Source of the DNA: a phage
Sequence record: PZ452612.1
DNA: 64,000 bases
Reading direction: 5' to 3' (one strand)
Part shown: in pieces, positions 1 to 14,440 of the stretch
Numbering within the stretch: position 1 is the first letter of the stretch
Layout: every line of letters begins with the position of its first letter
Translations under genes and position numbers: made by a program
Notes under the pieces: generated by a model
Seen by the model: the letters and a program-made list of their open reading frames with translations, nothing else
Databases searched by the model: none
What the model was told of the DNA's origin: nothing

Positions 1-1098
1 TGCTAACCCGTTTTTAGATAATTGACGTTTATAATATCTTTCACAATATGTACACGTCGTCCCGCAGATTTCATTAGCACAATCGAAATCTGGATGTCTG
101 AACCACCTTTTTTCTAAAAAGCCATCTAACAAAGAGGTTTCAATATTTACTGTATGTGAAAACTCAGTTTCGTTTTCAAGAGTGAAAATAGTCTCTAAAG
201 GCTTCCACAGTTCTAACAAATTACCTTCAAACTTTTCAGAAGCGTATGCTTCAAGAACTTTCAAAATGTAGTCTGTGCTACCTGTACGTCCTGAAACTTT
301 GAATTGAGTGATACCAATATCATTATAAAGTTTCAAATCTTGAGGACGAACAAAACGAGTTCTCAACCAGTTAAATGGGTCTGTATCACGAGCTTTAATA
401 CAGTGCTGCATAGGATATCCGTTTAAGGATTTAGCATCATCAGCTGTAACATCAGTACTATGGAAAATATAGCAAGAGTCACGATAGCTACAATGTGTTG
501 TATACCCTTTACCAGCATTAGAACAGAACTCATTTACAAGAACTTCAAATATTATATTGTTCTTATTGCAAAACTCTGCTGCACGCTTCAGGAAAGAAAC
601 TGAACGGTTCTTATGAATTCCACAGCAGACCTTTTTGATATTATACTGGTCATGCAAGTATTTGATTTGAGTTACAGCATCGACATGTAGAATTGTTGAA
701 ACTTCAATCTCAATGTCTTTATTGACTTCACGAACAATTTCCATAACAACAGGGTTAGCGATAGTAATACGCCATACGCCTATTGACCAAAGATACTGAA
801 CATAATCCTGAATAGCTTTCTTCTTCCACCCAACTAGTTCTCTTTTTGAACCAGGATTTATCGTGTTGAGTGTATAGTTAAAGCAAATACCTAATTCGTT
901 ACAACGTTTAACGTAATCTTCTAACATCTTTTTGTCAACGTCAGGAAGCCTAAAATCAGGTCTGGCTGCTACAAAAGCCATTTCTCTTGTAGAGCCGTAT
1001 ACTTCGTTTATCAAGCTATTAGGATAAGTTTTATTGAGCTCTACGATTTTATCAAGAAGAGCTAAATCAAAATTCGTTCCAATTTTAAAAGTATTCAT
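1..1098 (-). CDS. Hypothetical Cys-rich protein, partial (C-terminus runs off the window start); contains CX3CX2C near the visible end
   Basis: Manual reverse-complement translation from ATG at 1098: MNTFKIGTNFDLALLDKIVELNK...DFDCANEICGTTCTYCERYYKRQLSKNGLA, open to position 1. Not in the ORF track because it is open-ended. No family recognised. Confidence 0.5.
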   Translation of the reverse strand, partial: MNTFKIGTNFDLALLDKIVELNKTYPNSLINEVYGSTREMAFVAARPDFRLPDVDKKMLEDYVKRCNELGICFNYTLNTINPGSKRELVGWKKKAIQDYVQYLWSIGVWRITIANPVVMEIVREVNKDIEIEVSTILHVDAVTQIKYLHDQYNIKKVCCGIHKNRSVSFLKRAAEFCNKNNIIFEVLVNEFCSNAGKGYTTHCSYRDSCYIFHSTDVTADDAKSLNGYPMQHCIKARDTDPFNWLRTRFVRPQDLKLYNDIGITQFKVSGRTGSTDYILKVLEAYASEKFEGNLLELWKPLETIFTLENETEFSHTVNIETSLLDGFLEKRWFRHPDFDCANEICGTTCTYCERYYKRQLSKNGLA

Positions 1099-1154
1099 TT
1101 TTTTGCATCTCACGTTAATTGATGCGATGGTTTTTGCAGGTCTTACTTAAATTA

Positions 1155-1541
1155 TTATAGATTCGGTTTATATGATTTAAATGTTTCGAATTCGCCTTTA
1201 TTCATAAGAGCTTTGAATTCGTCAGGACGCATAGCTTTGTCGTCGATAATCCAATCATATACTGGTTTATGTGTTAGCAAATTATGGTACTTCAAACCAA
1301 TGTTTTCCAAGTTCTGAATCAGACTTGGGAGAATGTCAATTGCTATACGACCAGGACCTACTGACTTCATACCGCGAGCAGTGTAAAGCGTTATGGTATG
1401 CCCTGCATCATACAGGGCATTAATAGCAGTCACCATTTCGACGTCTGGTTTGAAGTTCACGTAATCACGATTGTTATTCCACTCTGTTATACAATCATCG
1501 ACATCAAAACAAAGATTAAGCATGTTTTCTACACGGTGCAT
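1155..1541 (-). CDS. HAD-superfamily phosphatase-like protein
   Basis: DxD motif FDVDDCIT near the N-terminus and a later IIDDKA motif fit HAD motifs I and IV. Start placed at the internal Met whose ATG overlaps the upstream stop (TAATG coupling); the track ORF extends to 1556. Confidence 0.5.
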   Translation of the reverse strand: MHRVENMLNLCFDVDDCITEWNNNRDYVNFKPDVEMVTAINALYDAGHTITLYTARGMKSVGPGRIAIDILPSLIQNLENIGLKYHNLLTHKPVYDWIIDDKAMRPDEFKALMNKGEFETFKSYKPNL

Positions 1542-3226
1542 TAGATTCGTTCCCATTGATGAGTGATATCGCCACCGATTGGACGATAAGAAACACCAGT
1601 TTCTTTATCAGTTAGTACCCATTTACCAGGATTTTTTGTAATCAGAGTAGCCGTTACAGGTTCTGCTACGTCATAACTAATAGAGCCGTCCTGAAGTACA
1701 CGGCCCATGTTACGTAATTGCTTAGTCAGAAGTTCCATACCTTTATAATATGCGGCTACCGCTTTAAGTGGATTATTCTTGAAATAACCACCTAATGCAA
1801 TCCAGATAATTGCTACAGCCAAATGATGATACTCGTTAAACGAACTCATCTTTCCATATTTGTAAACTAATGGATTGATGTTAATAGTCACATTACAAGT
1901 TGTTTCGTCAATAGTAAACTGTCCCCAGGTCGGATTAGCGTTGAATTCATCATAACCTGAAACAGCATAAAGCACTTTAGCTTCATCATACAATTTTGGC
2001 CCGTAAATCTTGGTTTCGCCAAAATATCCACGAGGGTCGATAAACTTGACTTCGCCGTTATCAGTAATCATAGTATTACTGAAGTTCGGGTCACCGTGAA
2101 TAACAGAGTACTGTCCCTGAGAACGGGTATGATAACGAATAAGATGTTCTAAAGCTTGCTTCAGCATTGGCTTCAGACGTCCAATCTTAGTGTAGTTCAC
2201 GTGTGTGATTTTACCAAATGAATCAATCAATGGCTGAATGCTTTCACAACGATCAATAACTTTCGTATAGAACTCTTTAGTGAAATCACGGCGAACAGTT
2301 TCAGGACTTACAAAATAAGTGTCTGTGCTGAATTTCAGTGCATCTAAAATTGCATCAACAATTTGTGGACGAGCAAGACTTGATTTGGATTTAATATATT
2401 CAAATGCTGGCTTACCTTTAATACGTTCCATTTCAAAATTATTTTCATTTACCGAAACTAACTGAGGAACTGAATCTGATTTCACTTTCAAATACCATGA
2501 AATCTCATCTTTTTGAAGAGCTCGACCTTGTTCGGTTAACGCGAATTTAGTTACAGTTTCTTCGCCAATTTCAACTGCATTAAAACTACGATTAAGTTCA
2601 CGAACTTCATGAGCTTTTTCAAGTTTAGGCATATCACCTAAATCAATTAGATTCATAAGCTCTGATTTATTGAATGCACTGCCGTAAAGGAATTCTACGA
2701 AATCACGTCCTTTGCAGTATTCATGAATTTCCTCATCAGTAGAACCCATGTAGAATTCCCAGTCTTTGAACTGATAAATTCCTACAACATTACCGCCTGT
2801 TGAACCTACGTTAGTGATATTTTCACCATCGAAATTATATCGACATTCATCACCCTTAACATAGATTGCGTTAACATTCCAAGACCATGAACCAAAATCA
2901 GGAATAATATCACACCAGTTAACAATTACGTTATGGCCATCTAAATCTTTGTATAATTTAGCAAGAGCATAAGCAGAACCATACGCTTCATCAACTGTAC
3001 GAATAGTCACATTGAACCCTTCTTGCTCGCAATAAGCTCGAACAGTTTCAGCAAATTTTGAATGAACTACTACAATAATTTCATCTGCGCCAAGGTCAGA
3101 ATAAATTGTATACAAATTGCTCAGAATAGTGTCTTGTTTATAGTTAACAAGAACTTTTGGAATATGATGCGTTATTGGATACAAACGAGTTGCCAGTCCA
3201 GCACCAAGAATAACAGCTTTTTTCAT
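1541..3226 (-). CDS. Bifunctional sugar-1-phosphate nucleotidyltransferase (N-terminal) / sugar kinase (C-terminal, APH/choline-kinase-like)
   Basis: N-terminus MKKAVILGAGLATRLYP matches the GxGxR loop of NTP-transferases. C-terminal half has IHGDPNFSNTMITDNGEVKFIDPRGYFG, an HGD...N...ID catalytic loop typical of phosphotransferase-fold kinases. 561 aa. Confidence 0.6.
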   Translation of the reverse strand: MKKAVILGAGLATRLYPITHHIPKVLVNYKQDTILSNLYTIYSDLGADEIIVVVHSKFAETVRAYCEQEGFNVTIRTVDEAYGSAYALAKLYKDLDGHNVIVNWCDIIPDFGSWSWNVNAIYVKGDECRYNFDGENITNVGSTGGNVVGIYQFKDWEFYMGSTDEEIHEYCKGRDFVEFLYGSAFNKSELMNLIDLGDMPKLEKAHEVRELNRSFNAVEIGEETVTKFALTEQGRALQKDEISWYLKVKSDSVPQLVSVNENNFEMERIKGKPAFEYIKSKSSLARPQIVDAILDALKFSTDTYFVSPETVRRDFTKEFYTKVIDRCESIQPLIDSFGKITHVNYTKIGRLKPMLKQALEHLIRYHTRSQGQYSVIHGDPNFSNTMITDNGEVKFIDPRGYFGETKIYGPKLYDEAKVLYAVSGYDEFNANPTWGQFTIDETTCNVTININPLVYKYGKMSSFNEYHHLAVAIIWIALGGYFKNNPLKAVAAYYKGMELLTKQLRNMGRVLQDGSISYDVAEPVTATLITKNPGKWVLTDKETGVSYRPIGGDITHQWERI

Positions 3227-3267: not shown

Positions 3268-3411
3268 CTAGTTAAAGCATTCATACTTTGCTTGTAGTCC
3301 AATCATAATCCATCCAATTACAAGTGTTGGAATCATTACTGGAGCCGTTAAGCTCCAGTAGATAGTCATGACAAGCATCAATAGTAAAAGTCCTATTGTT
3401 ATTGCTTTCAT
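3268..3411 (-). CDS. Small hydrophobic protein (47 aa), translationally coupled to the upstream isomerase gene
   Basis: Manual translation MKAITIGLLLLMLVMTIYWSLTAPVMIPTLVIGWIMIGLQAKYECFN; its ATG overlaps the stop of 3408..4043 (ATGA). Sits where T4 has imm/imm.1, but no sequence match is claimed. Confidence 0.3.
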   Translation of the reverse strand: MKAITIGLLLLMLVMTIYWSLTAPVMIPTLVIGWIMIGLQAKYECFN

Positions 3412-4043
3412 TGTTCGCCTCGTAACATGGCACCTAGTGCACCGCCTGGATGGAACTTAAGAAAGTCATTAGAGGTAAATCCACGTTCAGACGAAAGGTT
3501 GATAGCAAACGTATCGATAAGCGCTAACAACAATGTAGTGGACATAGTCGGAGCCAGAGAATTCTCATCAACCTCTACCGCGATGCCTGTACAGAAAGAG
3601 TAATCAAAAAGGGCTTCATTTTCTTGCGGAATGTCTGGGTTACAATGCAACAGAATCTGTTTGACATTTGGACGAATCATTTTAAGATGCTTAGCCACGC
3701 CTATCATTTCTTCAGTCTTACCAGAACGACTAATATGAATCAACACATCATTAGGCGCAATGAATCCTGCATCACCGTGAGAATAATGCCCAGTGTTCAA
3801 GTACATACTCGGGATACCGAGTGAAGCAAATGTCTCAGAAGCTTTAGTTGCAATATTAGCATTCTTACCAACACCTGTAATAATTACTCGGCTTTCATAA
3901 TTACTAAGTCCAGGGCGTCGAAGAGTTTCTAGAATAGCATTATAACGAGCAGGGTTTTGACTAATTACTTTGGCCATAGCGGCCAAAGAAGAAGCTTGTT
4001 TTATGATTGCGTCAATAGCGATAGTAATAGGAGTAGTTTTCAT
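3408..4043 (-). CDS. SIS-domain sugar-phosphate isomerase (arabinose-5-phosphate isomerase / phosphoheptose isomerase-like)
   Basis: 211 aa with VIITGVGKNANIATKASETFASLGIP, a SIS phosphosugar-binding signature. Lies directly downstream of gene 43. Confidence 0.6.
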   Translation of the reverse strand: MKTTPITIAIDAIIKQASSLAAMAKVISQNPARYNAILETLRRPGLSNYESRVIITGVGKNANIATKASETFASLGIPSMYLNTGHYSHGDAGFIAPNDVLIHISRSGKTEEMIGVAKHLKMIRPNVKQILLHCNPDIPQENEALFDYSFCTGIAVEVDENSLAPTMSTTLLLALIDTFAINLSSERGFTSNDFLKFHPGGALGAMLRGEQ

Positions 4044-4083: not shown

Positions 4084-6795
4084 TCAAAAATCGAACATAT
4101 CGAACAGAGATGCTTTCTTCTCGTAATCGAGTTTCGCTGCTGATGTGAATCCTTCAAGTGGTTTAATAAATGTCTTCTCAAGGAGAACAGTGTAGTCCAT
4201 CCAATGAAGTACGTCATCTTTAATTAAATCTGTGATTTCAGTACCAGAAGGCCATGCGATACATTTATCACCGAACGGGTTTCCTTCACGTAAAGGCAGA
4301 ACATATACTTTTTCACCTTCTACAACTTGTGGAGCATCAATATTACCTTTGATAGCTCTGTTATATGTCAGAATTCCACGAATATGGAACGGACATTTAG
4401 GACCAGGGAATCCACCTACATCATATTTAGCAATGTTATTCGCAGAAGATACCGACGCGATGCTAATATAATTCAATTGACGGAATTCTTTTTCAAACTC
4501 TTTAAAATATTCTTGTAATGATTCTTCACCTTCTTGAAGCATACGACGAATACATTCTTTAAGAGCTTTCTGTACTGCTTTAGGGGTCGAAGATTTCTGA
4601 GTCTCTAGACCCATGATTTTGAGTTTAGGCTCAGCGTAACGAGTACCTTCCATATCCCACACGTTTAATGCGTAACGTTTCTTACCAGTCCAGAATCCAC
4701 CAATACCTTTAGAACCGAGCGGAGGACCAGCGATAGCTTCTCGGTCCATGAACATTAAGTGTTGTTTATTGTTCATGTATTCACACATTTCACGGAAACC
4801 TCTATCAATAGCAGGTTCCATACGTTCACGAGCGAACTTATCTAAGAAGTCTACCCAATGGTTGGTATCACGGAATTTAGATTCACCAACCTTATCGATA
4901 ATTTTATCAGCAGATACGTAAATAGAGTCTGTATCACCATAAAGAACGAAAGCTTCACCTTCTGTACCACAAACTTCGTTCAGATATTCATTAACTTTAC
5001 GTTCAATCCACTGTAAAGCCATTTGACCAAATGTTGTGATTGCAGTAGCATTACGCAAATCGTAATAACGGAACCAAACGTTGCCAAGTGCACCATAAAG
5101 TGAGTTGATAAGCAATTTACGGTTAATTTGTGCAGTCATACCTGCAACTTCAGTACGTTGAGCTCTAAACAACATTTCATTAAGAGATTTAGCAGACAAC
5201 TTTTTAATCTTTTCTTTAATCTCGTCAGTGAAGTCGAAACGATAATCAACATCTAATGGTTCGTCAACAGAAAGATTAGGATTATGCAACGCCTCTTTAA
5301 TTATTTCACCATTACGTTGAGCCGCAAGCATATAACCTTTATGTTCTTTACGTTGATTAAAGACCTTAGTGATTTCAGTTGGAACTACACCATCACGGTC
5401 TTTATAATACATCATGCCATTAGGAGAACAACTGTACACATCTGAAGGACGTTCAGCGATTGCGTTAATATAATCATGCAGTGGAGCTACTTTAAACGTT
5501 CCTGCTATTGTTTCCGGGCTAATATTCACTTGGCGAATAATACTTGGATACAGAGATGTAAGGTCGAAACTCATTACATATTTGTATCGATTTGGAATAG
5601 GTTCCTTAACAAAAGCGCCAGGATAAGGTTGAACCGGGTGAGAACGACCTTGTGGAATCACCTTGTTCTGCTCTTTAAGGCTATTAAAAATAATAGCATC
5701 CCATGTTTTAATTGGGCTAAACACAGATTGAATCTGTATCTTAGCATAATAACCCATGTCCAAACTCAAGTTGATGAACTGACGCTTAGCATCAATTTGC
5801 AATACACGATACACGTCGATAATGTTATAAGAAATATATCGTTGGTGATTGCTTTCACGAAGCTTAGAAATAGGGCCGTCATATTTCAGTTTACCAACGT
5901 TCAATTCAAATTCTGAAATGTAATCTAGAGAATACGACGGTTGATTGGTAAAAGAGAATTTTTTGTAAAGGTCGATATAATCAAGAACAGAGATACCGAA
6001 CAATGTAATGATTTCACGAGAACCATACATGTTTTCGATAACTTTAACACGAGTTTTACGATGCGGTGATAAACGTTTCGCAGTAGATTCGCCAAAAATA
6101 TTCTTGATTCGGTTATACACATATGGAATATCAAATGACTCAACGTTCCATCCAGTCAAAATGACAGGAGTTTTCTGTTGCCAGAAGTTGAGATATTCCA
6201 TCAACAATTCTTTTTCGTTATCGAACGGCATATAAATGATTTTATCGATAATTTCAGATGGAACTTCATCACCGCCTTGTTCTTGAAGCTTAGCAGCGAT
6301 TTCAATAGACCATTCTTCTACATTACCATATGGAGAATTCAATAGATCAAATACGTAGAACCTGTCGTCAATTGAGTCATAATGGGTGATAGCATCAATC
6401 GGATGTTTTGCTTGTGATGGCTCAGGGAACCCATCCGGAGATGTTACTTCGATGTCGAAGTTAGCCACACGAATTTTTGTATGGTCGTATTTGATTTCAT
6501 AGTTATAAGTGTCAGACAAATACGCCAATTTGAAATCGTCCATGCCAAGTGCTTCAAGTCCGATATCTTCCATGCGTTTAATCCATTGGGAGGCATCACG
6601 CATATTAGCGAACAACTTACGAGTACACGGCTTACCGTAGATATCGAAATATTTCGTAGCCTGACTTTCCGGACAATGAGCAAACAGTGATGGTTTATAT
6701 TCTACTTCACGAGTACGTTCACGGCCATTAGAATCGATGTAACGTTCAAAAATTGAATCACCAATCTGTTCAACCGTTAAGTAAAATTCTTTCAT
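4084..6795 (-). CDS. 43: DNA polymerase (family B), gp43
   Basis: 903 aa, MKEFYLTVEQIGDSIFERYIDSNGRERTREVEYKPSLFAHCPESQ... Contains exo motifs (FDIEV, YNIIDVYRV) and pol motifs (DTDS, KKRYA). Matches the RB69 gp43 sequence as recalled. Confidence 0.97.
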   Translation of the reverse strand: MKEFYLTVEQIGDSIFERYIDSNGRERTREVEYKPSLFAHCPESQATKYFDIYGKPCTRKLFANMRDASQWIKRMEDIGLEALGMDDFKLAYLSDTYNYEIKYDHTKIRVANFDIEVTSPDGFPEPSQAKHPIDAITHYDSIDDRFYVFDLLNSPYGNVEEWSIEIAAKLQEQGGDEVPSEIIDKIIYMPFDNEKELLMEYLNFWQQKTPVILTGWNVESFDIPYVYNRIKNIFGESTAKRLSPHRKTRVKVIENMYGSREIITLFGISVLDYIDLYKKFSFTNQPSYSLDYISEFELNVGKLKYDGPISKLRESNHQRYISYNIIDVYRVLQIDAKRQFINLSLDMGYYAKIQIQSVFSPIKTWDAIIFNSLKEQNKVIPQGRSHPVQPYPGAFVKEPIPNRYKYVMSFDLTSLYPSIIRQVNISPETIAGTFKVAPLHDYINAIAERPSDVYSCSPNGMMYYKDRDGVVPTEITKVFNQRKEHKGYMLAAQRNGEIIKEALHNPNLSVDEPLDVDYRFDFTDEIKEKIKKLSAKSLNEMLFRAQRTEVAGMTAQINRKLLINSLYGALGNVWFRYYDLRNATAITTFGQMALQWIERKVNEYLNEVCGTEGEAFVLYGDTDSIYVSADKIIDKVGESKFRDTNHWVDFLDKFARERMEPAIDRGFREMCEYMNNKQHLMFMDREAIAGPPLGSKGIGGFWTGKKRYALNVWDMEGTRYAEPKLKIMGLETQKSSTPKAVQKALKECIRRMLQEGEESLQEYFKEFEKEFRQLNYISIASVSSANNIAKYDVGGFPGPKCPFHIRGILTYNRAIKGNIDAPQVVEGEKVYVLPLREGNPFGDKCIAWPSGTEITDLIKDDVLHWMDYTVLLEKTFIKPLEGFTSAAKLDYEKKASLFDMFDF

Positions 6796-7812: not shown

Positions 7813-8775
7813 TTATTTCCAAGTCAGTTCACAGGTCAGTTGAAGAAGCATATACATAACATGTAATTCAATATTACTTGCTAGTCCATGAAACTTATTA
7901 TTTTCGCCTGCAATTTCGTAAAGCGAAATAATACTTTTACCAGGTGCAACTTGGTCATAACATTCTGAAACTAATTTATCTATGAACCATGAATAATCTG
8001 CAGCATATTTTGGAGCTAATGCACGAAGTTGTTTGATATCTTTGTTCTTCATTGCTTCGATAACATCAGAGACTGTGCCACGGTCATTAGTTACGATAGA
8101 CAGAATACCTGCATCAAGAACACCTTTAGACGAGTACTGGTCTAATTGGCCAATTGTACGACGAAAGTCTGGGAAGTTCTTTTTAACCAGAGCTGCAACA
8201 ACTTTCATATCAGCGATTTCGATATTTTCGTTCTTACAGATTTCAACCATACGATGAATCATTTTCTTCATCATCGAGATTTTATCTTCTTCAGTCGGAC
8301 GACCGAATTCTATAACTCGACAACGGCTACGTAATGGTTCAATAATTCCATCAATGTTGTTGGCAGTAATAATAATAGAACAGTTACTAGAGAATTCTTC
8401 CATAAACGTACGAAGGTGACGTTGTGATTCGGCGAGGCCACTACGGTCAAATTCATCAATAACAATAACTTTAGGCTTGCCTTCCATTGAGACTGAACGA
8501 GCGAATGCAGTTAACGGACCACGCACAAAATCAATCTTACAATCAGAACCGTTGACGAACATCATTTCGGCATTGATATCATTACATAATGCTTTTGCTA
8601 CGGTTGTTTTACCTGTACCAGGAGAAGGAGAGTGCAAAATAATATGAGGAAGTTTTCCTTTAGATACTAAAGACTTGAATGTTTCATGGTCATACGCAGG
8701 CAGAATACATTCGTCAATGGAAGAAGGACGATATTTCTGTTCTAGAATGTGTTCTTTGGAATTGATAGTAATCAT
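7813..8775 (-). CDS. 44: Clamp loader large subunit gp44 (AAA+ ATPase)
   Basis: 320 aa; Walker [11 protein letters not shown], Walker [12 protein letters not shown] motif. Confidence 0.9.
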
Positions 8776-8850
8776 GTAATTTTCCTCATTATCATTAAAC
8801 TGGAGGATTTCTCCTCCATAATCGTATCACATTAAACGTAAATCTTTGTC

Positions 8851-9537
8851 TTAGAAGTCGTGAGTAGAATCGGCTTCCATTGCAATAACATAACTTACTT
8901 GAGAGCTTTCAAACTTGGCTGCAACTTTATCACCAGCTCCCCACAACATTACTTTATAGTTACCTGGCTGGATTTTCATATTAGCCATATTGATTACAAA
9001 GTTAAAGTTATTAGAACCATCATAATCGGTAAGAGTCAAAGAATACTTAGGACGAGTTAGTCCGGAATCTTCAACTTTATTGTAACCGTTGATAACAATT
9101 TTACCATCTTTATTTGTAATAGCAATTGTATCAATCTGGAGACCACGTGAAACTCGAAGCAATTGTTGAAGGTCTTCAGCTTTAATTTCAGTAATCACAG
9201 AAGCCACCGGGAATTGAATTGGCTTATTAGGAAAAACAATGGTGCTCTTGTCGGCAGCAGGCCAATAAACTGTGGAACGTGTATCTGCAATTTTAATATT
9301 GCCATCGGTGTGCATTGAAATTTCAGCATCATCAGACACTAGACTCAAAATGCTTAAGAAGCTATTCAAATCATAAAGTGCTACGTCAAAATCAATTTCA
9401 TCGGAGATATTTGCTTCTGCATAAGTGGTGCCATTAACTGCACGGGTCATAATAAATTTACCTTGACTCAGCAGAATGCCGGAGTTAATAGAGGCAAAGT
9501 TTTTCAGAATAGCGATAGTATCTTTAGACAGTTTCAT
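8851..9537 (-). CDS. 45: Sliding clamp gp45
   Basis: MKLSKDTIAILKNFASINSGILL...EADSTHDF matches T4 gp45 as recalled; start at internal Met. Confidence 0.9.
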   Translation of the reverse strand: MKLSKDTIAILKNFASINSGILLSQGKFIMTRAVNGTTYAEANISDEIDFDVALYDLNSFLSILSLVSDDAEISMHTDGNIKIADTRSTVYWPAADKSTIVFPNKPIQFPVASVITEIKAEDLQQLLRVSRGLQIDTIAITNKDGKIVINGYNKVEDSGLTRPKYSLTLTDYDGSNNFNFVINMANMKIQPGNYKVMLWGAGDKVAAKFESSQVSYVIAMEADSTHDF

Positions 9538-12420: not shown

Positions 12421-13436
12421 TGTGTTGCCTCAATATAAAGTTCGTTAGAATATTTGACCAGCGCTTCTCTGTCTTCGTCTGAGATATCTGGAATCGCGTC
12501 AATATATTCTTTAATGATATCTTGAAGTGATTTAATCTCGATTTCCTGGTCGTCATCAGATTCAACACTGTTATCAACTTTAGAAACCATACGAAGAGAG
12601 TGAACTACTTTTTCAAGTTCAGATTCAAACTTAGTCAACTCTGAATCAATTTCTGATACTATAACACGTACGGCTAGATTAGTATAATCAGAATAATTGA
12701 TTTTGCCTTTAAACGGATAAGTGATTCTTCGATGCCATGTTGTTTCATTAGGAATAAATTCCATACGTTCAACATCAGTGTCAAATACCCAGAATCCACG
12801 CGGGTCGTTCTCATCACCTGCAGTAAGGGTCCACGGTGTTCCAATATATTTGACGTTAGCAGCTTCAGAGATTGTGTGGAAGTGGCCTGACCAGACTTGT
12901 TTATAAGTCTTTAAGAAATCAGGTTCAAGCCCATGAGACTTCATCCCTTTATAGAAATAAAAGCCGTTCAGTTCCCAGTGCCCAACACAATACGCAGCAG
13001 AAGAAGTCTTGATGTGCTCTAAGATTTCACCTGTATTTTCTTCACACATCCATGGAACGATATCAATCAGACATCCGTCAAAATCTACAGTAGTCGGATG
13101 CTCATAAATAGTAAAGTTTTCAAATTGAGTTAACAATTCAGAAACAGTGTTAGGTGTTATTGTATTCTTAAACGCCATGTCATGGTTTCCTATCGTGACA
13201 TGAACGTGAATGCCTGCTTTAGAAATCATATCAACGATTTCACGATTGAATTCCATTGTACGATGTGTTATTGCTTTACGGACGTCAAACCAATCACCGT
13301 ACTGAATCCAAGTTTTAATCCCGTGTTTCTTAGAGTATTCAATTGCTTGTCGAATACCATCACGTTGAATATCTTGAACCCATGGGTCGTCTTGTTTGAC
13401 TCCGATATGGAAGTCGCCTAAGTGCAAAATTTTCAT
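12417..13436 (-). CDS. 47: Recombination endonuclease subunit gp47 (SbcD/Mre11-like phosphoesterase)
   Basis: MKILHLGDFHIG...GNHD...GHFH metallophosphatase motifs; 339 aa as in T4 gp47. Confidence 0.9.
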   Translation of the reverse strand: MKILHLGDFHIGVKQDDPWVQDIQRDGIRQAIEYSKKHGIKTWIQYGDWFDVRKAITHRTMEFNREIVDMISKAGIHVHVTIGNHDMAFKNTITPNTVSELLTQFENFTIYEHPTTVDFDGCLIDIVPWMCEENTGEILEHIKTSSAAYCVGHWELNGFYFYKGMKSHGLEPDFLKTYKQVWSGHFHTISEAANVKYIGTPWTLTAGDENDPRGFWVFDTDVERMEFIPNETTWHRRITYPFKGKINYSDYTNLAVRVIVSEIDSELTKFESELEKVVHSLRMVSKVDNSVESDDDQEIEIKSLQDIIKEYIDAIPDISDEDREALVKYSNELYIEATQ

Positions 13437-13478
13437 ATTATTTCCTCATTAGTTAATTCATTTTATCATCCGTTTATA

Positions 13479-13507
13479 AAGCAAAAAAGGAACTCCGAAG
13501 AGTTCCT
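13479..13507 (-). terminator. Rho-independent terminator (AGGAACUC-UUCG-GAGUUCCU followed by UUUUUUGC)
   Basis: Perfect 8-bp stem, UUCG loop and a 6-U tract read on the minus strand, directly after the stop of the small ORF 13506..13679. Confidence 0.6.
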
Positions 13508-13679
13508 ATCCACATAGTACACCGTACAGAGGCTCATTTGAACTTTTAAATCGAATTGGCTTGTACGTAATAGTTCCTTCGGCTTTAGCTTTATCATAAG
13601 ACTCTTTAAAACGTCTCATTCTTTCTGCTTTGCCTTTACGGATTTTATCGAAATTTTCAGAAGTCGGGATGTTCGTCAT
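13506..13679 (-). CDS. Small basic protein (57 aa)
   Basis: Manual translation MTNIPTSENFDKIRKGKAERMRRFKESYDKAKAEGTITYKPIRFKSSNEPLYGVLCG; GAGG Shine-Dalgarno upstream; terminator follows. Confidence 0.35.
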   Translation of the reverse strand: MTNIPTSENFDKIRKGKAERMRRFKESYDKAKAEGTITYKPIRFKSSNEPLYGVLCG

Positions 13680-13718
13680 GCATAAGCACCTCTCAGAAAA
13701 TGCCTAAATCAATTTCTC

Positions 13719-13940
13719 TCATCGTTTCCACCATTTCTTAACTTGAAATGAATCGGCCCACACGAGTTGTTTTGGGTCTGCCTTTACAATAGGCGGACAA
13801 ATTTCTGTAATAGAACCGTCGTGATATTCCTTTTCAGAAATTTTAACACAAAGAGGACCTCCCAATTTAAGGGTGAACCCTGCGTTCAGCTTCAGACGTT
13901 TAAACTTTGTTTGAACTAGCGCCATTAATGATGTCCTCAA
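13719..13940 (-). CDS. Hypothetical protein
   Basis: 73 aa track ORF in the 55-47 interval. Confidence 0.3.
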   Translation of the reverse strand: MRTSLMALVQTKFKRLKLNAGFTLKLGGPLCVKISEKEYHDGSITEICPPIVKADPKQLVWADSFQVKKWWKR

Positions 13941-14223
13941 TAGCCTGACGAGTAGTAACCCACTGGATTTTAATTAACTTGTCATTGTATGGTTGTCGTA
14001 GAATATCCCGAGATTTCTTAATAGCATATTCGTAAGCTTCGAAGTTGTTTTGAATTGCTGCTTCTTGAGCATGAGCATAAAGACGGTTTAGTTCAAAACG
14101 ATTCTTTTTAAGAATCTTTTCGGATTTTTTACGTGCTTCAGCTTCATTTTTCTTTTGGATTTCTTGTAGCATTTTAGCTACTGCATCTTCTGCTTCTTTA
14201 TTTTCAATAATCTCGGTAGTCAT
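13900..14223 (-). CDS. Hypothetical protein
   Basis: 107 aa ORF, charged, coiled-coil-like. Confidence 0.4.
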   Translation of the reverse strand: MTTEIIENKEAEDAVAKMLQEIQKKNEAEARKKSEKILKKNRFELNRLYAHAQEAAIQNNFEAYEYAIKKSRDILRQPYNDKLIKIQWVTTRQAIEDIINGASSNKV

Positions 14224-14224
14224 A

Positions 14225-14440
14225 TTATCTCATTAAATTAAAATAAAAACGTCCATCCTCTTCAATACAGAACTCATACTCAACTGGAGTCCCATTTATC
14301 GAAAATGACACGTCATGTGGGTTCAAAGGGTCGATGTCAAAATTAATTTTAAATTCACGACCCAACAGTTTTACCAAATAAGGGATTGCTTCGTCAAAAG
14401 GTTCTTCTAAGTAGTTAGAGATGTCAATTGTCATCCTCAT
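14225..14440 (-). CDS. Hypothetical protein
   Basis: Track ORF 14225..14518 trimmed to an internal Met so that it does not run deep into gene 55. Confidence 0.35.

Follow-up and report, generated by a model that had tools for sequence, protein, structure and literature searches.

In Escherichia coli, several U32-family proteins take part in hydroxylations that draw on prephenate. RlhA is the 5-hydroxycytidine (ho5C) synthase; its cysteines C169 and C176 and two cysteines of a C-terminal cluster are essential for ho5C2501, and the reaction also requires prephenate synthesis and the isc genes (PMC5727448). TrhP provides a prephenate-dependent route to 5-hydroxyuridine (ho5U), alongside an O2-dependent route through TrhO (PMC6599085). 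UbiU and UbiV each bind one [4Fe-4S] cluster by means of Cys residues that are conserved, a four-Cys motif that is common to most U32 subfamilies (PMC6747719), and prephenate is the oxygen donor in UbiUV reactions (PMC10990095). Here, we describe a gene at the edge of a 64,000-nucleotide stretch of phage DNA (record PZ452612.1; the window). The gene (1..1098, minus strand) encodes residues 1-366 of a 386-residue U32-family protein homologous to RB69 gp50, and we propose that the product is an O2-independent, prephenate-dependent cytosine C5 hydroxylase that acts on deoxycytidine monophosphate (dCMP).

The gene sits within the RB69 gp45-gp55 block, which is an arabosyl-5-hydroxycytosine DNA-modification cassette (Lee et al., NAR 2026, PMC13326640). 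Work in 2025-26 resolved the 5-hydroxycytosine pathway of RB69-type phages, and the hydroxylase in it depends on O2: gp48 makes 5-hydroxy-dCMP, carries flavin, and takes the oxygen atom from O2 (PMC13326640). For a phage of the gut, this raises the question of how DNA modification can continue there under anoxia. The U32 gene offers a testable answer, as it most likely makes 5-hydroxycytosine for sugar-coated phage DNA in an O2-free reaction via prephenate.

A virus-specific branch of the U32 family

The original prediction, made from the sequence of the window, noted an open-ended gene with at least 366 amino acids visible. Indeed, 366 codons run without a stop on the minus strand from an ATG at 1098-1096, the remaining five frames of the same interval contain 16-52 stops each, and the frame continues past the edge of the window. 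The gene encodes 386 aa in NC_041864, an identical record, so the window misses just 20 residues and the stop codon; the residues cut off are ENSISIIDITNSDDALRYPE (locus L001:3941-4000, minus strand). Within them, T4-like members carry an acidic C-terminal tail that closes with a conserved ...D(D/E)xxRYPE; it is lacking in divergent viral homologs and may serve in docking. Over its first 8 kb, the window is identical (100%) to the E. coli O157 typing phages 3, 6, and 13, and it shares 98.4% identity with RB69 (genus Mosigvirus). The U32 gene is the homolog of RB69p050, annotated "peptidase" in its record. The gene is carried by 222 phage records, all at least 80% identical, and "peptidase" or "peptidase family U32" is the label in the records and in PHROG 5757.

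Peptidase_U32 (PF01136) is the sole Pfam domain matched in the protein (residues 94-286; 42.4 bits versus a curated gathering cut-off of 22.4), and it is precomputed on almost every homolog. PHROG 5757 matches the protein end to end. NCBIfam gave a weak UbiU match only, far under its cut-off, and thus the phage protein is not an ortholog of the characterised U32 hydroxylases. Nor does it qualify as an RlhA ortholog, given that it matches PF01136 only, has no DUF3656, and is 386 aa long versus about 650 aa. An AlphaFold2 model from 51 homologs (predicted local distance difference test 94.2, predicted template modelling score 0.92) found its best Foldseek match in the Protein Data Bank (PDB) in 5d88, the U32 protein Mk0906 (E 1.5e-7), followed by generic TIM barrels. 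The model therefore confidently predicts a TIM-barrel U32 core. PDB sequence searches with the single protein and with the 51-sequence profile returned nothing relevant; only the fold comparison reached 5d88.

An exhaustive profile search found 1,691 cluster representatives at E<=1e-3 and 476 at E<=1e-30, mostly 350-390 aa in length. Searched against E. coli proteins, a hidden Markov model (HMM) of 249 family members gave TrhP 43.5, RlhA 43.3, and UbiU 24.3 bits, and UbiV received no score. Aligned to RlhA with hhalign, the phage family reached 86% probability over 205 columns. This alignment places the phage stretch RDSCYIFHS on RlhA SGQCYISHA, so that C209 corresponds to RlhA C176. Altogether, the phage protein is a virus-specific branch of the U32 family, to which UbiU/UbiV, TrhP, and RlhA also belong.

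Conserved cysteines in the core and the C-terminal tail

The visible protein has 13 Cys (66, 72, 158, 159, 177, 192, 203, 209, 233, 340, 345, 349, and 352) and 8 His. Its Cys content of 3.6% compares with a median of 0.9% for the 52 window open reading frames (ORFs) of at least 150 aa, and is the second highest. The CX3CX2C motif (CGTTCTYC) that had been noted near the visible C-terminal end lies at residues 345-352 and is part of a four-Cys motif, CX4CX3CX2C, at 340-352. The codons of these four residues (Cys 340, 345, 349, and 352) lie at 40..81 on the minus strand and mark a candidate second [4Fe-4S] or metal site. The U32-core cysteines (192, 203, 209, and 233; codons within 397..525, minus strand) are spaced C192-x10-C203-x5-C209-x23-C233, and the core pattern of the family is NEFC-x(3-15)-C-x5-C-x(20-23)-C.

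The cysteines, described as conserved-looking in the original prediction, are conserved among homologs. Ten are invariant in 51 homologs of 48-88% identity, and across 249 relatives, with identities as low as 25%, seven are conserved at about 95-100%: C192, C203, and C233 at 99-100% and the C-terminal four at about 95%. C158 falls to 42% in the most distant bin. The C-terminal tail always has four Cys, and their spacing varies: CX4CX3CX2C in 138 relatives, CX3CX2CX2C in 27, CX3CX3CX2C in 25, and CX4CX2CX2C in 22. This variation indicates that the CX3CX2C resembling a radical SAM motif is an accident of this sub-branch.

The conserved pattern fits an Fe-S enzyme, and the number of conserved cysteines would suffice to hold a [4Fe-4S] cluster in the core and a second one in the tail; a core-plus-C-terminal arrangement of cysteines is already known from RlhA. 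The suggestion that the gene may encode a metal or Fe-S enzyme completing the pathway of the neighbouring genes is partly supported: the gene belongs functionally with the cassette, and its cysteines are consistent with Fe-S binding.

Linkage to prephenate supply

A chorismate mutase gene (Pfam CM_2) overlaps the U32 stop codon in Enterobacter phage Entb_45 and Serratia phage LC53. CM_2 was found downstream of U32, within zero or one gene, in 7/7 non-Mosigvirus phage genera tested; the others are genera of Klebsiella, Pectobacterium, Yersinia, Proteus, and Shewanella phages. The phage CM_2 proteins score 32.8-46.8 bits versus a Pfam cut-off of 27. The residues that we equate with the AroQ catalytic set (Arg, Arg, Lys, Glu, Ser, and Gln, with roles that we take to be those in E. 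coli PheA) are invariant in these small proteins. By tblastn, this chorismate mutase is present in 51 phage records, where the annotated features under the match are always peptidase, thymidylate-synthase, or unnamed ORFs.

Among the 15 T4-like IMG/VR loci, 13 have the chorismate mutase, and the exceptions are one Mosigvirus and Klebsiella phage Marfa (L028). In Mosigvirus, U32 and the ThyA-like gene are separated by gp49 (79 aa, PHROG 8601; L001:3702-3941, minus strand); the chorismate mutase occupies the corresponding slot in other genera (compare L006:6158-6394 and L008:3658-3900). Considered as a diverged chorismate mutase, gp49 was rejected: it has no Pfam match, a hhalign probability of 0.2% when compared with the phage chorismate mutases, and a PHROG of its own. 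Marfa has neither gp49 nor chorismate mutase. Apparently, the chorismate mutase was lost or replaced in the Mosigvirus lineage.

Viruses that are not T4-like show the same association. CM_2 lies directly 3' of U32 in L056 and the L057 group, and a fusion of CM_2 with 3-deoxy-D-arabino-heptulosonate 7-phosphate (DAHP) synthase lies just 5' of U32 in L051 and L052/L053 (L051:8399-9430, L053:7290-8354, and L052:3-968; Pfam scores of 89-125 bits for DAHP synthase and 65-72 bits for chorismate mutase). At L021:8145-8891, a DAHP-synthase-like gene without the fusion stands alongside U32. Three independent gene arrangements therefore tie the U32 branch to the prephenate route, and the viral DAHP synthase and chorismate mutase genes look like shikimate-pathway auxiliary metabolic genes. 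As a rough estimate, a 168-kb genome of 37% G+C has about 62,000 cytosines, and a burst of 100-200 would call for several million prephenate molecules. Such a demand would explain a phage-borne, unregulated mini chorismate mutase and even a DAHP synthase.

Linkage to DNA modification in divergent viruses

Metagenomes commonly contain genes for proteins 44-58% identical to that of the phage; these genes lie on viral contigs as long as 466 kb. Their neighbours include DNA polymerase III alpha or a family B polymerase, SSB, primase, and UDG, as well as dCMP deaminase, dUTPase/DCD, thymidylate-kinase-like genes, NT5C, and dNK. We selected 25 divergent viral lineages, with U32 proteins 44-57% identical to the phage protein and less than 90% identical to one another, and scanned the flanks of U32 (7-10 kb on either side) with HMMs of the T4-like cassette proteins. 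RB69 gp46:47, predicted to be the first DNA arabinosyltransferase (phrog_3891), has a homolog in 18/25 lineages, with full-length BLASTP E values of 4e-13 in L024 and 5e-14 in L023. A gp45-like kinase within 10 kb is likewise found in 18/25. The transferase gene abuts or overlaps U32 in seven lineages, and in four loci (three lineages) a transferase-kinase fusion lies a few kb from U32. The fusion ORFs, of about 550-606 aa, match both HMMs (L047:2591-4408, L055:5237-7054, which equals L066, and L061:5318-7003).

No gp48-type hydroxylase was detected in any of the 25 lineages within the scanned flanks, even at E<=1. In a Pfam census of 148 neighbouring ORFs, Thymidylat_synt is not among the best 25 of 75 families, which leaves room for a single match; the matches listed include SIS isomerases, sugar nucleotidyltransferases, DAHP synthase, Glf, and GT47-type transferases. 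All 15 T4-like loci, by comparison, contain both U32 and gp48. The occurrence of U32 with the transferase and kinase, and without gp48 nearby, suggests that U32 fills the place of the hydroxylase in a kinase-transferase-hydroxylase set.

Other gene contents around divergent U32 genes were also seen. Radical SAM genes, some with SPASM, recur a few kb away (L003:1-249, L024:4980-6011, and L004:12160-13185). Locus L004 has two different U32 paralogs (8001-9098 and 13227-14360), with NT5C, a deoxynucleoside kinase, a nicotinamide mononucleotide transporter, radical SAM-SPASM, a nucleoside deoxyribosyltransferase, and methyltransferases as neighbours. A distant family member of 377 aa lies in a bacterial gene cluster from a human gut metagenome (L016:3095-10184; its protein cluster includes Agathobacter rectalis). 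That cluster has AgrB, a ThiF/MccB-like enzyme, an AAA ATPase, an MFS transporter, an ATP-grasp ligase, and an S66 (MccF-like) peptidase, and resembles microcin-C-type peptide-nucleotide gene clusters.

Distribution and oxygen

Phages with the U32 gene infect Escherichia, Klebsiella, Shigella, Serratia, Proteus, Yersinia, Enterobacter, Providencia, Edwardsiella, Shewanella, and similar genera. These hosts are facultative anaerobes. Homologs of gp48 occur in 346 records, of which 57 are Acinetobacter phages, and among the phage records matched U32 was not seen in phages of Acinetobacter, a strict aerobe. Acinetobacter phage Apostate has the same cassette minus exactly U32 and chorismate mutase, such that its phosphatase gene abuts the ThyA homolog.

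Gene order around U32 in the window

All cassette genes of the window lie on the minus strand, and the order of transcription is DNA polymerase, arabinose-5-phosphate isomerase, nucleotidyltransferase/kinase, phosphatase, and U32 gene. The DNA polymerase gp43 (4084..6795) is the cassette boundary. It is followed by the SIS-domain arabinose-5-phosphate isomerase, homolog of RB69 gp55 (3408..4043; PMC13326640), and by the AfhE-like nucleotidyltransferase and kinase for UDP-arabinose synthesis, RB69 gp52:53 (1541..3226, 561 aa; PMC13326640, PMC6024577). The latter is a single intact ORF here and is split as ORF052c/053c in the RB69 reference record; this split, like that of ORF046c/047c, is a known sequencing error. 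The upstream neighbour of U32 is the homolog of RB69 gp51 (1155..1556), reported as a HAD-like arabinose-1,5-bisphosphate phosphatase (AfhF-like; PMC13326640), for which Pfam gave no match. Beyond the window, U32 is followed by gp49, gp48 (the thymidylate-synthase-like 5-hydroxy-dCMP synthase), gp46:47, and the kinase gp45.

A promoter-like site, TTTAAA-N16-TATAAT (sigma-70-like, 10 of 12), lies 56 nucleotides 5' of the U32 start codon (1154..1181, minus strand). It falls inside the end of the phosphatase gene, and such sites are not above chance in the region. In Proteus phage Pm5461, a terminator is annotated just 5' of the U32 gene.

Proposed function

By analogy with the characterised U32 proteins, we infer an Fe-S cofactor, prephenate as the oxygen donor, a cytosine substrate, and independence from oxygen. 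The protein would hydroxylate cytosine at C5, most likely on dCMP to give 5-hydroxy-dCMP, which phage kinases and polymerase would put into DNA and phage glycosyltransferases would then arabinosylate. It would act when the O2/flavin enzyme gp48 cannot, as the oxygen-independent counterpart with the same product. Following the scheme proposed for UbiUV, a two-electron oxidation of the ring would release electrons by way of one or two [4Fe-4S] clusters, one held by core Cys 192/203/209/233 and one by C-terminal Cys 340/345/349/352. The hydroxide would come from decarboxylation of prephenate, yielding phenylpyruvate and CO2. Most related phages would obtain prephenate through their own small chorismate mutase, and the Mosigvirus lineage would rely on host PheA/TyrA.

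We put the full statement, that the U32 gene encodes an O2-independent, prephenate-dependent dCMP 5-hydroxylase supplying 5-hydroxy-dCMP, at a probability of roughly 60%. That the protein is a prephenate-dependent U32 hydroxylase is, on its own, quite probable. The broader proposition stands at even odds: that viruses recruited the U32/prephenate system to make 5-hydroxypyrimidine DNA precursors without O2, beside gp48 in RB69-like phages and as the sole hydroxylase in many uncultivated phages, fed by viral shikimate genes.

Several observations weigh against this function. The PROSITE-type U32 signature, which we take to be E-x-F-x2-G-[SA]-[LIVM]-C-x4-G-x-C-x-[LIVM]-S, matches UbiU, RlhA, and TrhP and is absent from the query and from all 250 family members; the region is recognisable in the phage family only with an insertion, NEFC-x10-C-x5-C. 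Its absence from the whole family explains why the original prediction saw no U32 signature by eye. That observation stands; the dismissal of U32 that it implied does not, given the PF01136 score, the 5d88 fold, and the TrhP, RlhA, and UbiU matches. The core cysteines also do not match the canonical U32 spacing CX6CX15CX3/4C, and C209, conserved at 100% in close relatives, falls to only 45% in the most distant bin.

The gene contexts add further points on that side. No chorismate mutase is encoded in the 64-kb window, nor in L001/L002. The scan of divergent lineages was limited to 7-10 kb flanks, so a ThyA-type hydroxylase could lie elsewhere in the contigs. Dhakavirus coliphages carry the cassette without U32 and chorismate mutase despite a facultatively anaerobic host, which makes the pair an accessory module. 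The absence from Acinetobacter phages concerns one phage clade and thus amounts to roughly one evolutionary event, and the contrast between aerobes and anaerobes rests on few independent events. Moreover, in air, gp48 and a kinase are all that is needed for 5-hydroxycytosine in E. coli DNA (PMC13326640), which makes gp50 dispensable under those conditions. Lee et al. (2026) list RB69p050 in a table entry only, as a "sugar or heterocycle reductase", from the fold match to 5d88 (PMC13326640). Finally, direct hydroxylase activity has been reconstituted for no U32 protein, and in vitro assays are awaited (PNAS 2024, PMC10990095).

Alternative functions

The first alternative keeps the U32/prephenate chemistry and moves it to cytosine in phage DNA after replication, where the enzyme might mop up unmodified C. 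Both RlhA and TrhP, the nearest relatives so far characterised, have polymers as substrates, rRNA and tRNA (PMC5727448, PMC6599085), and the predicted DNA glycosyltransferase gene abuts U32 in the seven lineages mentioned above. The phage protein, though, is without the extra C-terminal domains of RlhA and TrhP, and U32 travels with the gp45-like nucleotide kinase (18/25 lineages), dCMP deaminase, dUTPase/DCD, and NT5C/dNK, neighbours that point to mononucleotide metabolism. Complete replacement of C in virion DNA (PMC13326640) is also easier before replication. We therefore regard a DNA substrate as unlikely.

A redox helper, serving the arabinose branch or the gp48 flavin rather than hydroxylating, would agree with the reductase label in Table 1 of PMC13326640, with the position of the gene between the sugar-activation genes and gp48, and with the frequent role of Fe-S proteins as electron shuttles. 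Acinetobacter phage DLP3, however, makes tri-arabinosyl-5-hydroxycytosine with its ThyA homolog gp80 adjoining the phosphatase gp81 (PMC13326640), and Acinetobacter phages without U32 and Dhakaviruses with the same cassette show that neither the arabinose branch nor gp48 needs U32. A helper function also fits poorly with the 25 divergent lineages, where U32 is found with transferase and kinase but no gp48 nearby, and leaves the repeated linkage to chorismate mutase and DAHP synthase unexplained. Such a role is improbable.

TrhP and RlhA are the top scores among characterised proteins, and a viral RNA hydroxylase of their kind could act on host or phage tRNA or rRNA and tune translation during infection. 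We consider this more improbable still: both DUF3656 and the U32 C-terminal domain are missing from the protein, the hosts have TrhP and RlhA of their own, and the context in T4-like and unrelated viruses alike is one of DNA-precursor and DNA-glycosylation genes. A genuine collagenase-like peptidase, as the labels in the records and in PHROG 5757 have it, is very improbable, because the family name is historical with no catalytic mechanism known (PMC5727448, PMC6747719) and the invariant cysteines, chorismate-mutase linkage, and nucleotide context do not suggest proteolysis. Least probable, to the point of dismissal, is a radical SAM-type enzyme: CGTTCTYC has the CX3CX2C spacing with an aromatic residue before the last Cys that is typical of radical SAM motifs, but the spacing becomes CX2CX2C in 49 relatives, no Radical_SAM profile matches, the fold is predicted to be a U32 TIM barrel, and the motif is C-terminal with a constant fourth Cys, in keeping with the earlier remark that its position is atypical for these enzymes.

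Novelty and significance

The U32 gene itself is not a new object, having been annotated for a long time and listed in a table in 2026. We found no paper that ties U32, prephenate, or chorismate mutase to phage 5-hydroxycytosine or hypermodification, with He et al. (Nat Chem Biol 2026) and reference 56 of PMC13326640 outside the search. A phage Tn-seq preprint has no data on the U32 gene, and there is no discussion of it in the Thanatos and 2018 RB69 papers. What we propose as new is that viruses have a U32 hydroxylase, that it acts on a new class of substrate, that it comes with a prephenate supply of its own, and that its Cys architecture is distinct.

If the proposed dCMP hydroxylase is real, the DNA of RB69-like phages would stay protected across the oxygen gradient of the gut, and U32 would be the sole hydroxylase in many uncultivated phages, including those with contigs of 128-466 kb. 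The range of prephenate-dependent U32 hydroxylases, so far quinones and RNA, would then take in DNA precursors, and viruses as well. The function would explain the phage chorismate mutase and DAHP synthase and would give a role to a "peptidase" gene found in more than 200 phage genomes. Were the substrate soluble dCMP, a simple in vitro assay would for the first time be available for a U32 enzyme, allowing a direct test of prephenate as an oxygen donor. There would also be a bearing on phage therapy and on evasion of restriction or defence under anaerobic conditions.

Comparison with known systems

The best structural match, Mk0906 of Methanopyrus kandleri (5d88), aligns with a TM score of 0.68 on the target; it has 11% identity and 247 aa, and sequence profiles miss it. 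UbiU-UbiV shares with the phage protein the U32 family and the proposed role as an anaerobic backup, in its case to flavin monooxygenases, with [4Fe-4S] and prephenate shown experimentally (PMC6747719, PMC10990095). It differs as a heterodimer with one cluster per subunit, a lipid substrate, and the accessory UbiT, and its similarity to the phage family is weaker. Unlike UbiU/UbiV, the phage protein could hold two clusters in one chain.

TrhP (YegQ), which acts on tRNA U34, also carries out pyrimidine C5 hydroxylation, and its family-HMM score is on par with that of RlhA. It differs from the phage protein in its length of 453 aa, its tRNA substrate, the canonical CX6CX15CX3C, and the lack of the C-terminal four-Cys motif. 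RlhA (YdcP), which acts on E. coli 23S rRNA C2501, has the U32 core of the phage protein and makes a cytosine C5 hydroxyl, the same chemistry as in phage 5-hydroxycytosine. Its essential pair C169/C176 aligns with the phage "C..RDSCY" stretch, and both proteins have an extra C-terminal Cys cluster. RlhA, however, is 653 aa long with DUF3656, contains the strict U32 signature, and acts on pre-50S rRNA, whereas the phage protein consists of the U32 domain and the CX4CX3CX2C tail only, is without that signature, and would act on a DNA precursor.

The gp48-type synthase (RB69 gp48, DLP3 gp80, and the HY126 homolog) makes the product proposed for gp50 and is encoded two genes away in the same cassette. 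Its fold is unrelated to U32, it depends on flavin and O2, and it occurs in Acinetobacter phages that lack U32. The pairing of gp48 with gp50 would follow the same logic as the dual O2 and prephenate pathways of TrhO and TrhP in tRNA (PMC6599085), and would parallel UbiIHF and UbiUV in ubiquinone synthesis.

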